From Pseudomonadota bacterium (lineage in GTDB: Bacteria; Bdellovibrionota_B; Oligoflexia; Oligoflexales; Bin106): a stretch of DNA of 24,950 nucleotides. Shown here piece after piece: positions 5,074 through 17,173 of this stretch; the stretch's first letter is position 1, and every line of letters begins with the position of its first letter. The notes under the pieces are model-generated. The model was not told the DNA's origin. It was given only the letters and a program-made list of their open reading frames with translations, and did no database searches. Made by a program: the position numbers and the translations under genes. The DNA is taken from the NCBI GenBank assembly GCA_026710525.1, contig JAPOQT010000124.1, positions 1 to 24,950 of the forward strand, read 5' to 3'.

Positions 5074-5787
5074 CTACTCTCCTTTAGGTAGATCAGTTAT
5101 GCCAGGCACCGGTGCTGCTTTATTACTGTTTTTGTTGTTGCCTTCGTTGTTATCTGATGGTGGTTGGTTTTTTTTGTCCGTCTTATTATCAGGTGGTATA
5201 GCTTGATCATTAGGCGATTCCGAGGTGTTACCCACTGCCGATGACTGCATAGCAAGAATTTGCATATCCAGAGCCCGTTGATTAACGAGGATCATACTGA
5301 GGGATGTGGATGATTTGCGAGCCCCTTCAGGCCATAACACTTCCACAGTGGCTATTTTAATCATATGATCATTAAAGATTTGCTTGATTTGGTCAGTGAT
5401 CAAGTTAGATACTGGTGGTCCTCCCTCTTGGTTGTTCTGTCCTTCGCCAGTTAGCATGGCAAAAATGGGCAGTTTCCATTCTTCACTGCTAATTTTATAG
5501 GAATAATCAGTAAAGATTTTGGTTGCGTCTTTGCCCCAAAAATCATCACCAATCTTTTTTTCATTAACGGTTAACTCTAGTTCACTAAAATCCCTGGTTT
5601 GCCATTCATACTCAAGTCGTGCCATAATACCCTGAGCTAGCCATATCCCTTCGGATAGACGACGACTATACTCCACCGAATACACGACTTGTCCTTGAAT
5701 ACCGGTCACTTGGAGTAACACCACAGCTAACATGCCCACGGCAATCACAGTCTCAAATAAAGAAAAACTTTTTTCTCCGTTACTCAT
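5074..5787 (-). CDS. gspI: Type II secretion minor pseudopilin GspI-like, with low-complexity C-terminal tail
   Basis: Class III signal 'EKS|FSLFETVIAVGML' with E+5, first gene before gspJ-K, and 'ATVEVLWPEG' resembling the 'v.V.W' GspI end motif. Confidence 0.72.
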   Translation of the reverse strand: MSNGEKSFSLFETVIAVGMLAVVLLQVTGIQGQVVYSVEYSRRLSEGIWLAQGIMARLEYEWQTRDFSELELTVNEKKIGDDFWGKDATKIFTDYSYKISSEEWKLPIFAMLTGEGQNNQEGGPPVSNLITDQIKQIFNDHMIKIATVEVLWPEGARKSSTSLSMILVNQRALDMQILAMQSSAVGNTSESPNDQAIPPDNKTDKKNQPPSDNNEGNNKNSNKAAPVPGITDLPKGE

Positions 5788-5979
5788 TCACAAACTCTTC
5801 ATACGGTGGAGTCATTCATATGACTTCTGTTAAGATGATGGGTAGTAGTCTTACTGCCAAAGCTTCTTATGACATTTTAGCTATCAATGGTGGTGAAAAA
5901 AATAATGTATTCATATCAATTGACGATAACCTTCATAGTTAATGTATGGCTGTTACATTCATTAGGAGCAATTTAAGCT

Positions 5980-7740
5980 ATGGTAAACTTAAAGTATTTT
6001 ACCACTGTGTTTATTATATACCCTCTTTTTATTCTTCCACTCGCATCATGTAAAAGTTTCTCCTTTAATGAGCAAAAAGGGGAAAACAATTATTCTCTCC
6101 AAGGTCTTTTCGATAGTCAGCATCTCCTCAGACTGAAACAGGTTGATGGTAGTGCTATATTGTTTCGTTTTGAAGTTTGTCCTTTTGGTGCCAGTAAGAA
6201 TCAGATTCTTGAACAGTATTGTGTTTCCGCTCTGCAAACAAATAGTGGCGATGACATTATATTTTCTGTGGAAATGATTCAAGAAATGAATTTGACGGCA
6301 AGGGAAAAGCAAGAATTGAATGACCTGCACGTCTTGTGGATGGGATATCGAGACGATATAATCGATCTCTCAGGGCGTGAGCCAAGGGAGCTAGTAGCCA
6401 TTCTTGGTGGCAGTTTTACTTTAGGCAATTTTGCCGGTTATGCCACTCATGCTGCTTCGTACAAGATGAGTTCAGATCATTATTTCAAACGGTTTGGTGT
6501 ACGAAACGTTGAACAGGCTACGAAGGAGCTTAATCAAGTCATTAAAGAGCTGAAACTCTTTGGTTTGGATGTGTCCACGGACTTAGAACCAACACTCAGC
6601 ACCCAAGAATTTTGGTACCTTAAAGAAAACAGCACGAATAAATTTTCAGTAAAATTTCACAAATCCCATTACCCTGCCATCAGTGCTCTCTCTCAAAGCG
6701 GCCTTAGTACTGATGAGCAAGTGTTGGCAGTCGTTAGAAATTTTGTCAGAAACAACTCATTTCAGGAGTTGGTTAATGCGAATATGTATGAGCGTTTTTT
6801 ATCGTACTATCAATTGAAATATTCAACTGTTTTAGTGACACCAGGCATGCCCACTTTTTGTGGTGTTAGTTGTTTAGAGCAAGCTTTCAAGCAAGATCCG
6901 AAAGGTATCCTAGATGAACTTGATCGTTTTATTATGGATCGAGGACGGGTTAAAAAATATTTCAACGAGAGAGTTTTAACCAAACTGGGTCGTATGGAAC
7001 AACTTCTGGAGGCTGTGGCAGTTAAGAGGCCAGCGAATCTCGCAGGGATGAAATTGACAACGGGGAATATGTTGAGGAGAACGCGTGCTTTTGCGATATG
7101 GAGTGGAGGTGCCGCGTTAGCTATCATGGCCCTAGAAAACAATAACTTTATGAATAAGGCAAGTAGCGCTGTTAATACGGCTTACAATAAGGTCGTCGAT
7201 CGTGTTACAGGTGGTAATACCCTCGATCCCAATTACGCCGATAACAGAGCCGCGAATAATAATACAGGGGGGGCATTTTCAACCATGTCTGACAAACTAA
7301 CAGTGATGTTAAAAACCCCTGACACCATGAATGCTCTATGGAGCAATGTTAGTGATAAGAATCAGCCAACCGAGGCGATCACATCGGTACTTAAAGCTTT
7401 TGTTCTTTATGGGGGAACTTTGTTTAGTAGTGATGCAATAAGTAATTACTGTTTACCTGAATCATCGAATCAAGTTTATTCAAAAGTTTGTTATTTTCCA
7501 GAATCAGATCAATTAGCAGCGCAGGATGATGTGGCAACAGTACCGTTTAAGCAACTCTCATCAACTCTCCTATCTAAGCCTCAACCTAGTCAACAGGATG
7601 CGACAGCCCCAGAAGGAGATCAAAAAGAAGGCATCGACAGTAGTACTCAAGTGCCAACCATAAAATCAGAATCAGATAACGAATCCACAGATATTGATTT
7701 GCCAGAATCTGAAGAGGTTTTGTTACCGATAAGCGAGTAA
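5980..7740 (+). CDS. Unrecognised lipoprotein, paralogue 1 of a tandem family
   Basis: Lipobox LAS|C (Cys24, codon 6049-6051), AGGAG upstream, and full-length similarity to 8534..10069 (HLLRLKQ, FRFEVCP, YCVxALQ, RFLxYYQ, SDKL, VLKAF, YCLPE, KVCY). Confidence 0.85.
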   Translation: MVNLKYFTTVFIIYPLFILPLASCKSFSFNEQKGENNYSLQGLFDSQHLLRLKQVDGSAILFRFEVCPFGASKNQILEQYCVSALQTNSGDDIIFSVEMIQEMNLTAREKQELNDLHVLWMGYRDDIIDLSGREPRELVAILGGSFTLGNFAGYATHAASYKMSSDHYFKRFGVRNVEQATKELNQVIKELKLFGLDVSTDLEPTLSTQEFWYLKENSTNKFSVKFHKSHYPAISALSQSGLSTDEQVLAVVRNFVRNNSFQELVNANMYERFLSYYQLKYSTVLVTPGMPTFCGVSCLEQAFKQDPKGILDELDRFIMDRGRVKKYFNERVLTKLGRMEQLLEAVAVKRPANLAGMKLTTGNMLRRTRAFAIWSGGAALAIMALENNNFMNKASSAVNTAYNKVVDRVTGGNTLDPNYADNRAANNNTGGAFSTMSDKLTVMLKTPDTMNALWSNVSDKNQPTEAITSVLKAFVLYGGTLFSSDAISNYCLPESSNQVYSKVCYFPESDQLAAQDDVATVPFKQLSSTLLSKPQPSQQDATAPEGDQKEGIDSSTQVPTIKSESDNESTDIDLPESEEVLLPISE

Positions 7741-7764
7741 CATCAGTATTTGAGAGTTCTCAGC

Positions 7765-8410
7765 TACGATCAAACGGCAGTCTATGACCTTCCAGGTCTT
7801 TGATGGTTAGCATATTTATAAGACTCAAGCAGGTTGATGATCACAAACATTGACAGAATTAAGGCAAATAAGACGGTGTGTACTGCTTAGTGCTTGTTTA
7901 TCAAAGAGCTTGGCCCAGTGTGGGAAAGTTTCAATCGTTTCTTCACCATGAGAGAAGGACTGAATACAGTGATATTCTTTGGGATCCTATGGTAGATGAT
8001 ATTTCTCCAGATAGAGCATGACAAAATAGTAAATTTTGGCACTCAAATAAATGAGGTATTTGACGAAACGAACGTTAGTGATTATCTCGATGACGACTGG
8101 TGTTATGCTAGTTTATTTCGCTCTTGAATTAATAAAGAAACCTGATATAAAGCTATCCAGAGTGGCATAACGTCACCACCAAAATTTCTTGATAAACTGA
8201 GGTGAATGCTTGATGAAGTCACGAAGGTAGTGTTGATCAACCAGCAGAGCAGGTATTTTTTGTACTCAAAGCCTTTATTTTTTATGAGTACTCTGTTTGA
8301 TAGTGACGGCTAAGTCCCTAGTTACTGTTTACCGGAAGTCTCATCTGATGGGGCGGCGGCACCATGGAAGGTAATTTCACTATCACCTATTTTTTCTGCT
8401 AGTAATCAAC
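7765..8410 (+). pseudogene. Collapsed, frameshifted third copy of the flanking lipoprotein family
   Basis: Family motifs occur in the same order as in the intact copies. 7802-7842 aligns 36/41 nt to 8651-8690, with CAG to TAG and an indel. 8060-8128 encodes LTKRTLVIISMTTGVMLVYFALE, 8191-8208 DKLR*M, 8262-8285 VLKAFIFY, 8320-8340 SYCLPEV, then AAPWKVIS. Confidence 0.85.
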
Positions 8411-8533
8411 GAGAACAACAGAAGATGGTAGCTGAAAAAAGGGTAACTAAAAAAAGTAACAGTAGCATTATGAGATGCCAATCGACTAAATTGGTATCAG
8501 AATCTTTAAAGTATAGACGAGTATAAGACTAAA

Positions 8534-10069
8534 ATGAATCCCATTACCACACGAATTACCCATATCTTATTTCTCCTATTAGTAGTTACATCATGTCGAA
8601 TGTTACCATTCGAGGATCAAGAGGATCGTTATGCTCTCCAAGCTCTTTTTGATGGTCAGCATCTTTTAAGACTGAAGCAGATTGATGATCGTGGGACGCG
8701 ATTTCGTTTTGAGGTGTGCCCACTTGCTAATAATACAACCAGGATTATTGAGGAGTATTGTGTGGCTGCTTTACAGGCTCAATCAGGAGCAGATATAAAT
8801 TTTTCCCTGGAAACAATTGAGCAAAGTCACCTGATTCAAAAGGAACAACAAAGAGCGAACATTTTTCATTCTTCATGGCTAAAATACAGACAGCAAATGG
8901 CAGAGCTCAATCCCACTGCCCTAGCCTTAACCCTTGGTGGTGGTATCGTGCTCACAGATCTTGGTATTTATGCCGCGAGATTAGCTGGGCACGAGTCCCA
9001 ATTAAATCAGTATTTTAAACAGCTTGGTGTTCGTAGCACTGATGAGGCAGCTCAAGAGCTTAACGAAATTGCGCGTCAACTTGAGTCCCTTGGTTGGAAT
9101 CCAAAGTGGATGGATTTTGGGCCAACCATAACTGAAAGGGAAATCAGGTCCTGGCAAAGTAGTCCTAACAAGAGAATGATCATTGAAAATTTATTTTCAG
9201 AGAAATTTGACCAAACATATGGTGATGATATTCGTTTGAGAAGCCTTGATGGAGCCGGTGAGTATCTCGAGGGAATTTTACCAGTAGTAAGGGATTTTGT
9301 TAGGAAAAATTCAGTTAAAAGCTTAATCAATGAAAGTTATTATAATCGCTTTTTACACTACTACCAAATGAAGTATCACCTGCCAGACTATTATCGTAGT
9401 ATTGTTGATTTTCAAGCTTACCGAGTACGTGCCTCTCATCGTTTAGAGCAAGCATTTATTAATAATCCTATGGATATATTAAGTGAATTAGAGCTGTTAG
9501 TTAAAGATAGGGGAGCTGTTAAAAGCTATTTAAGTAGCGAAATATTAGGAAAACTGAATCGATGGGAAATGCTCCGCAATGTTGTTGTGGCAAACCAACC
9601 ATCTAAGGCGAGCTGGGTAGCAGGTAAAACTGGCAGTCTTATGAAGCGAATATCTGTGGTTAGCTTGGCTACCACTGGCGCTATGCTAGCTTTCCTCGCC
9701 CTCGAAAAAAACAACGACTCCTCAGAAGAGGATGTCTTGAGTGAACAAATACCACTGCCAAGGATCTCTGACAAACTGGTGATGCTAAATAATCCTCAAC
9801 AATGGGACGCGTTATGGCGTCACGAGGCTGGTGCTAACCAATTCATAGACCAAGTAACTCCTGTATTAAAGGCTTTTGTTTATTACGGAGATTTGATGCT
9901 GGATGGTGGTGGTGATATTGCTAGTTACTGTTTGCCTGAAGTCATATCACATCAAAGCTACGCTAAAGTTTGTTATGGGGTAGTATCAGCTGTTAAAGCT
10001 CAAGGTGATAAAACAGCGGCACCATTTAAACAAATTTCATCAGTGCCTCTTTCTGCTCCTCGCGATTAA
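8534..10069 (+). CDS. Unrecognised lipoprotein, paralogue 2 of a tandem family
   Basis: Lipobox VTS|C (Cys21, codon 8594-8596) and the same conserved blocks and four non-lipobox cysteines as 5980..7740. Confidence 0.85.
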   Translation: MNPITTRITHILFLLLVVTSCRMLPFEDQEDRYALQALFDGQHLLRLKQIDDRGTRFRFEVCPLANNTTRIIEEYCVAALQAQSGADINFSLETIEQSHLIQKEQQRANIFHSSWLKYRQQMAELNPTALALTLGGGIVLTDLGIYAARLAGHESQLNQYFKQLGVRSTDEAAQELNEIARQLESLGWNPKWMDFGPTITEREIRSWQSSPNKRMIIENLFSEKFDQTYGDDIRLRSLDGAGEYLEGILPVVRDFVRKNSVKSLINESYYNRFLHYYQMKYHLPDYYRSIVDFQAYRVRASHRLEQAFINNPMDILSELELLVKDRGAVKSYLSSEILGKLNRWEMLRNVVVANQPSKASWVAGKTGSLMKRISVVSLATTGAMLAFLALEKNNDSSEEDVLSEQIPLPRISDKLVMLNNPQQWDALWRHEAGANQFIDQVTPVLKAFVYYGDLMLDGGGDIASYCLPEVISHQSYAKVCYGVVSAVKAQGDKTAAPFKQISSVPLSAPRD

Positions 10070-10086
10070 GCTGATGGCGAAGAGTA

Positions 10087-10158
10087 AAGCTAACTCAAAT
10101 CAAGAAACTCAGTGGTCACAAGAGTTATCGTAGATATAGGGTGACATTGAGTTAGCTT
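10087..10158. repeat. Perfect 12-bp inverted repeat with 48-nt spacer between convergent genes; possible terminator or structured RNA
   Basis: AAGCTAACTCAA (10087-10098) and TTGAGTTAGCTT (10147-10158), with an inner GTCAC/GTGAC pair. Confidence 0.6.
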
Positions 10159-10196
10159 ATGAGCGTTATCAAAAAAGTCACAGCAACGTTGGTCAA

Positions 10197-16624: not shown

Positions 16625-16880
16625 GCCTATTAAAAGACGAGACTCTTGAGTAGGTTGTTTTAGCTAAGTGTAAATAAAAAGCGTTATAGGTTCTTAAGTG
16701 CTCAATTTTCACAAGGCTATGTTACCGAGACATGCTGGTAGGACTATCTCCGTGAATGATTTATGGCGCCACTCTTCATACAAAATCAGGGTTATCACAA
16801 CCAATATGTTGGCCTATGACCACAAGAAGGACTTTTTTATCCATCAGGATACTCTCAGGGTGCGGTCAAGATTTTACGCC

Positions 16881-16917
16881 ATCATTATCGTATCTGATAT
16901 ATCAGATACGTAATGAT
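16881..16917. repeat. 22-bp perfect palindrome extended to about 37 bp with one bulge
   Basis: CGTATCTGATATATCAGATACG (16889-16910) equals its own reverse complement, flanked by ATCATTA(T) and TAATGAT. Confidence 0.9.
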
Positions 16918-17173
16918 AGTAGCATATAGTAAATGGATATTTATGCAAAACAGTATCTCAAGTGGTCAAGTAAGATCATAAGCAGGGCCAACTTTTGCCC
17001 TTGAAAATATTGGTGTCAGAATGACGATGAGTCACTCTTTCAGTAAAAATAACCCCAAGCCTCTCTTTAAAATTCTCTTACGGTGTTCGTTCGCTTTGTG
17101 ACTTGAGTAAAAACCAAAGTAATTTGATTGTGGTAGAACAGGGTAGTATGACTTGTTTGCCAGTGAGTTACTG

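Follow-up and report, generated by a model that had tools for sequence, protein, structure and literature searches.

The window analysed here is a whole contig of 24,950 bases (C124) from a metagenome-assembled genome of 1.82 Mb (328 contigs, 86% complete, 41% G+C), and the public sequencing runs that hold its sequence are sponge metagenomes. Its left part carries two intact genes of one predicted lipoprotein family, gene 1 and gene 2, placed between a type II secretion operon and the pair hflC and hflK (Table 1). The HflC protein has its nearest named relatives, 53-58% identical, in genomes of Oligoflexales, Bacteriovoracaceae and Bdellovibrionota, so that the bacterium is probably Bdellovibrionota-like. 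The lipoprotein array, with its edges at 5788-5979 and 10070-10196, coincides with a break of synteny relative to the same-genus genome, in which the type II secretion pseudopilin genes and hflKC lie on separate contigs and no family member adjoins either. About 3.5 kb downstream of its intact hflC, that genome also has an hflC fragment (C82:53125-53388; residues 166-253 at 72% identity) that is interrupted by three in-frame stops and is a pseudogene. The proteins of genes 1 and 2 are 37% identical over 543 columns (E 1.6e-105). The 793 bases between their genes, at 7741-8533, form the largest gap in the window. The second-largest stretch of this kind lies at 16625-17173, between a redoxin-like gene and ccmE, and spans about 550 nt with no open reading frame (ORF) of 110 aa or more.

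Table 1. Positions of the features discussed, in window coordinates unless another sequence is named.
Feature	Position	Strand	Description
Type II secretion operon	up to 5787	minus	GspJ, GspK, PilM/GspL-like
Gene 1	5980-7740	+	ORF, intact family paralogue of 586 aa; lipobox LASC; long polar tail ending LPISE
Stretch after gene 1	7741-7752	+	12 nt from the gene 1 stop to the first recognisable relic codon
N-terminal block of relic	7753-7841	+	equivalent to gene 2 residues 22-52 (RMLPFEDQEDRYALQALFDGQHLLRLKQIDD); 16/29 aligned residues identical
Middle of relic	7842-8036		195 nt without assignable origin, in place of about 310 codons (gene 2 residues 53-360)
C-terminal block of relic	8037-8391 (robust from 8060)	+	equivalent to gene 2 residues 361-506 (369-506 from 8060)
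Probable relic of a long C-terminal tail (tentative)	8392-8489	+	CAA at 8407-8409 aligns with the gene 2 TAA stop
Short spacer	8490-8533	+	precedes the gene 2 ATG
Gene 2	8534-10069	+	ORF, intact family paralogue of 511 aa; lipobox VTSC
hflC and hflK	right of gene 2		converging on the lipoprotein pair
Ends of long-tailed paralogues	7723-7737; L003:2490-2504; L008:1312-1326	minus for L008	polar tail ends in the three long-tailed paralogues
Broken copy between two paralogues	C125:5619-6300 (region 5397-6596)		3 frameshifts, 2 stops
Broken short-form copy	C267:1569-2077		frameshifts, stops; residues 40-125 and 237-281 about 100 nt apart
Broken short-form copy	C259:6702-7470		frameshifts, stops, collapsed middle

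The family to which the two genes belong is expanded in this genome and narrowly distributed elsewhere. The host genome encodes at least 24 members of the superfamily, several of them in tandem arrays of up to five copies (contig C78), and arrays or members are located at 5980-10069 of the window and on contigs C78, C83, C125 and C270. They fall into long forms of 458-629 aa and natural short forms, which measure about 290-360 aa and are missing the central helical insert. The lipobox cysteine, Cys21, is nearly invariant, and the cysteines C62, C76, C466 and C480 are invariant or nearly so; C62 and C76 do not vary in 39 sequences. Three long-tailed paralogues share an ending, (L/M)P(I/L)(S/L)E followed by the stop, after a polar low-complexity tail. 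A profile search gave 12 matches in the same-genus genome and one marginal match (E 8e-4) in 39 other genomes of the order. Among 1.84 billion proteins there are about 170 cluster representatives of the family, many of which come from one other contig, of 2.69 Mb, where copies are adjacent too. No name is carried by the family homologues, no Pfam family is matched by the proteins of genes 1 and 2, and no significant fold match was found in the PDB or in AlphaFold clusters (mean pLDDT of the model 74.8), the ESM Atlas giving nothing usable. A word search of 5.8 billion proteins returned only gene 2's own protein, an exact look-up of the gene 1 protein gave no match, and neither did pattern scans of metagenome and genome contigs.

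We confirmed that the gap between the two genes holds a collinear, same-strand relic of their family. At the nucleotide level (blastn), 7768-7842 aligns with 8615-8690 of gene 2 (75% over 77 nt, E 1.8e-10), 8065-8345 with 9643-9948 (60% over 307 columns, E 8.8e-15) and 8356-8409 with the last 54 bases of gene 2 (10016-10069; 67%, E 0.004). The best of these scores, 66.8 bits, was reached in none of 300 dinucleotide shuffles, which gave 21.2 +/- 2.5 bits and a maximum of 32.6. With the gene 2 protein as query, tblastn found three collinear plus-strand segments in three different frames (sum E 3e-8): the LTKRTLVIISMTTGVMLVYFALE helix, the VLKAFIFY block and the piece running from SYCLPEV to AAPWKVIS. 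The gene 1 protein gave weaker matches, and a profile of six paralogues recovered the identical three pieces with their order kept. When the gap was compared with all ORFs of the genome (tblastn and blastx), genes 1 and 2 were the only significant matches and gene 2 was the best. That the relic matches these two genes only, among all family members, fits a local tandem origin. These results bear out the central proposal of an earlier, sequence-only reading of the window, namely that a third paralogue, decayed and miniaturised, lies in the gap, and the significant collinear tblastn segments in 7741-8533, whose absence it had named as refuting it, are there with the gene 2 protein. Its manual alignment of 36 out of 41 nt between 7802-7842 and gene 2 is reproduced as 88.6% over 44 nt (7799-7842 against 8648-8690), which is the core of the N-terminal match. 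The family resemblances that it had listed for the helix at 8060-8128, VLKAFIFY, SYCLPEV and AAPWKVIS are all recovered, in order, by tblastn and by the profile. It had also put the ancestor at about 1.5 kb, and we measure the shrunken remnant at about 0.65-0.74 kb.

The anatomy of the relic was drawn from a frameshift-aware alignment and a three-frame translation. The recognisable sequence begins at the equivalent of gene 2 residue 22, directly after the lipobox cysteine Cys21. A signal peptide needs at least 63 nt and only 12 nt are present before this point, so the signal peptide has been lost; the third copy's promoter, ribosome-binding site, start codon and lipobox cysteine are equally absent from 7741-7752, and no lipobox appears in any frame of the relic in the three-frame translation. 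The N-terminal block retains the family motif Y-x-LQ-x-(F/Y)D-x-Q-H-x-LRLKQ, which stands right behind the lipobox. It is broken by frameshifts near 7792 and 7817 and by a TAG stop at 7808-7810 in place of the CAG of gene 2, a nonsense change that had been read, together with an indel, from the letters alone; the alignment shows it as well, with indels next to it. In the C-terminal block 51 of 116 residues are identical (12 of 23 in the helix at 8060-8128), and it comprises the second hydrophobic helix, VLKAFIFY, SYCLPEV and AAPWKVIS, together with a linker that is poorly conserved and of matching length. Its lesions are five frameshifts (8058, 8129, 8203, 8219 and 8286), three stops (TGA at 8052-8054, TGA at 8143-8145 and TAA at 8311-8313) and two deletions, one of 7 codons and one of 19, the longer of which takes the last conserved cysteine (KVCY, C480). 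Of the family's C-terminal module, the hydrophobic Gly/Ala-rich helix, VLKAF-x-x-Y and YCLP are thus kept and the second cysteine of the pair is deleted. The damage totals seven frameshifts and four in-frame stops, and no open frame runs across the homologous blocks. Hence, the frameshifts of the sequence-only reading stand and its several large internal deletions do not, for what we find is a single large loss, a truncation of the 5' end and two small deletions. It had also held that the surviving pieces are mostly the conserved blocks. This is mainly a detection bias: with paralogues only about 37% identical, nothing but conserved blocks is recognisable, and in fact one contiguous piece, non-conserved linker included, is retained of the C-terminal third.

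Downstream of the C-terminal block the relic probably continues into what was a long tail, and this part of the reading is tentative. At 8469-8489, in the third frame, 'YEMPID-stop' resembles the MPILE, MPLLE and LPISE ends of the three long-tailed paralogues. The genome contains the corresponding motif, [LM]P[IL]x?[ED]-stop, 31 times among 3.6 million codon positions in six frames, which leads to an expectation of 0.001 in the tail segment. Of the 147 other family representatives that the profile search yielded, not one has this end motif. The nucleotide similarity of 8392-8489 to the tails of the paralogues is not significant. If the tail reading is right, the relic extends to within 44 bases of the start of gene 2.

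Between the two blocks, at 7842-8036, every family-like signal is at chance level. A tatggtagatgatatt echo of YGDDI at 7988-8003 had been proposed from the sequence; the match is real (15 of 16 nt), but its score of 12 compares with a shuffle mean of 11.7 and was reached by 160 of 300 shuffles. Translated pairwise comparison on the plus strand gave a family similarity that 52 of 200 shuffles reached, two family profiles stayed at chance level on both strands, and blastx of this segment against every ORF of the genome returned no match. The first cysteine pair of the family (FEVC...YCV; C62 and C76) left no profile or pairwise signal in the segment. 'VYCLVLVYQ' at 7878-7904, considered as a remnant of this pair, is at chance level. 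We also rejected as chance an inverted fragment, minus-strand 7990-8106 against gene 2 residues 248-284 (tblastn E 0.017): one of 200 shuffles reached this match in pairwise comparison, but 38 of 300 and 55 of 300 did so with profiles, and the match overlaps the significant plus-strand match of the helix.

The identities between the relic and its neighbours bear on what sort of copy this is. In the N-terminal block the relic shares 80% of its nucleotides with gene 2 and 72% with gene 1, and the two genes share 81%; in the C-terminal block the corresponding values are 68%, 74% and 74%. Over the shared blocks the ranges are 62-80% for the relic and gene 2, 65-74% for the relic and gene 1, and 65-81% for the two genes. 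The relic is therefore roughly as distant from each neighbour as the neighbours are from each other, and is an old, separate third paralogue, neither a recent partial copy nor a chimera of its neighbours.

One might still suspect an artefact in which the flanking paralogues were fused or collapsed during assembly, since the metagenome-assembled genome is fragmented and incomplete, and the public contigs have a depth of only 2-5 and leave two parts of the gap uncovered. Yet the identity of the relic to either flank is only 60-80%, and words shared by the gap do not exceed 16 nt with the rest of the genome and 13 nt with the flanks. This makes a misassembly driven by repeats implausible, and with no common word above 13 nt, the assembler could not have made the relic from reads of the flanks. 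Contigs of three sponge-metagenome runs are moreover 100% identical to the window over 7491-7816, 7961-8261 and 8215-8405, the contigs listed leaving 7817-7960 and 8406-8592 uncovered and the runs possibly including the data from which the genome itself was assembled. These contigs span the junction of gene 1 and the relic and the boundary at about 8060; they take in every lesion except one and show neither joints nor loose ends, and the segment 7961-8405, lesions included, is reproduced at 100% identity in contigs of two runs. The chimera of flanking genes that the sequence-only reading had named as the finding that would overturn it is contradicted by these contigs, which repeat the junction and most lesions exactly outside the two uncovered stretches, and an assembly artefact is extremely unlikely. 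The type of ancestor is a separate matter. The relic could descend from a natural short form (N domain and C domain without the central helical insert, about 290-360 aa), in which case no large deletion would be needed, and the genome does have many intact short forms that match the profile at positions 6-187 and 368-468 only, among them those at C125:508-1533 (342 aa) and on C83 (320 aa). But no short form matches the relic, whose only significant relatives are its two long-form neighbours. Ahead of the hydrophobic helix the relic has about 95 codons' worth of DNA against about 190-230 in short forms, and the cysteine-pair part of the N domain is undetectable in it, so that a deletion is required with either ancestor. 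A short-form ancestor is accordingly unlikely, and a long-form one that lost a large internal part is to be preferred, given that the sole relatives are the long-form neighbours.

Could the relic nonetheless be of use to the cell? It might be a silent donor cassette, kept because its conserved blocks would permit gene conversion of either neighbouring gene, which would vary a surface lipoprotein in the manner of vls, msp2 or pilS: the family consists of lineage-specific, expanded predicted lipoproteins in tandem arrays, and the promoterless relic adjoins two copies that look expressed. RecA-dependent exchange requires roughly 20-30 identical bases. Exact matches of the relic reach at most 12 nt with gene 1 and 13 nt with gene 2, at a block identity of 62-80%, which falls well short of this need and makes a recombination substrate, as the sequence-only reading had suggested, unlikely. 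Furthermore, the locus has a single relic and no array of cassettes, frameshifts and stops fall inside the very blocks that would be donated, and no variation was seen among four runs in the covered parts, the only variant in those of genes 1 and 2 being one A>G at a very low depth (2-5). We thus regard a donor cassette as very unlikely. The broader idea that this relic and similar collapsed ones form a reservoir for occasional short-patch conversion into live lipoprotein genes seems to us just as improbable; were it true, a sponge-associated, probably Bdellovibrionota-like bacterium would gain a way to vary its surface proteins. A non-coding or minor coding role acquired after decay, as promoter, long 5' leader of gene 2, small RNA or small peptide, would be in keeping with the relic occupying nearly all the space upstream of gene 2 and with the lack of a terminator-like site between the two genes. 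Against such a role, the plus strand of the gap has no sigma-70-like promoter site and a comparison of the gap with Rfam gave nothing at E up to 1 (nor does it contain a tRNA). Two small ORFs in the relic (7878-8021, 47 aa; 7996-8127, 43 aa) might be expressed. We hold an exapted role to be quite unlikely, although it would be compatible with the relic being a pseudogene and not opposed to it.

Taken together, the gap holds the remains of a tandemly duplicated third member of the lineage-specific family of genes 1 and 2, very probably a non-functional pseudogene. It combines significant homology to functional genes with disabling lesions, and nothing in its sequence indicates a present function. 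Tandem duplication would have given rise to an ancestral array with at least three copies on one strand, which diverged to roughly 65-80% nucleotide identity in their conserved blocks. The middle copy would then have been inactivated and worn down by the deletion-biased mutation that is typical of bacteria, losing the whole 5' end, from regulatory region and start codon to signal peptide and lipobox, together with about 0.9 kb of central sequence, and gaining small deletions, frameshifts and stops. Such a relic would encode no protein and would at most be a passive part of a transcript that extends from gene 1 into gene 2, a read-through that the lack of a terminator-like site on the plus strand of the gap suggests.

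The decay of this copy has parallels elsewhere in the same genome (Table 1). One broken copy lies between two paralogues on C125 and is a younger pseudogene: it aligns as four collinear pieces in three frames with residues 45-272 of its upstream neighbour (54-73% identity, E 1e-55), and the cysteine of its FEVC motif has become glycine. Collapsed middles are found in two of the three other broken copies (C267 and C259), about 110 codons being reduced to about 100 nt in the former. With these three further broken copies in one genome, birth-and-death turnover accompanied by deletional decay is supported as general to the family here. The turnover that the sequence-only reading had claimed for the array fits, at least three other broken copies adjoining intact ones or lying near them. 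The intact third copy that this reading proposed to seek in related genomes was not found with protein queries in 40 of them, and the family profile detected only distant members, mostly of the N domain, in the same-genus genome. The relic accounts for the largest 'intergenic' gap of the window, whose annotation changes from an empty spacer to a pseudogene, and an uncharacterised, lineage-restricted lipoprotein family both gains and loses copies in this genome. This bears on gene turnover in sponge-associated bacteria and provides background for studies of the family.

Comparison with known systems places the relic among decaying genes. With Borrelia vls, Anaplasma msp2 and Neisseria pilS it has in common that a truncated surface lipoprotein gene lacking a promoter lies beside full-length copies; it differs from them in an identity that is far too low, in its single copy and in lesions that fall within the shared blocks. 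The likeness to tandem multigene families under birth-and-death evolution is closer: same-strand paralogues at about 37% protein identity, a dead copy among live ones, and several arrays and several relics in one genome. The difference is that no orthologous arrays, from which turnover rates could be estimated, were found in other genomes. The closest parallel is with deletion-eroded bacterial pseudogenes. In 2001 Mira, Ochman and Moran reportedly described how duplicated, non-processed pseudogenes of bacteria are eroded by a deletional bias, in host-associated and reduced genomes. From such pseudogenes the relic shows no essential difference; its parent family is uncharacterised and confined to a narrow lineage. 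It shares with them functional homologues next door, frameshifts and stops, the loss of start codon and regulatory region, shrinkage and an oversized spacer. By itself, the relic is an ordinary decaying pseudogene.
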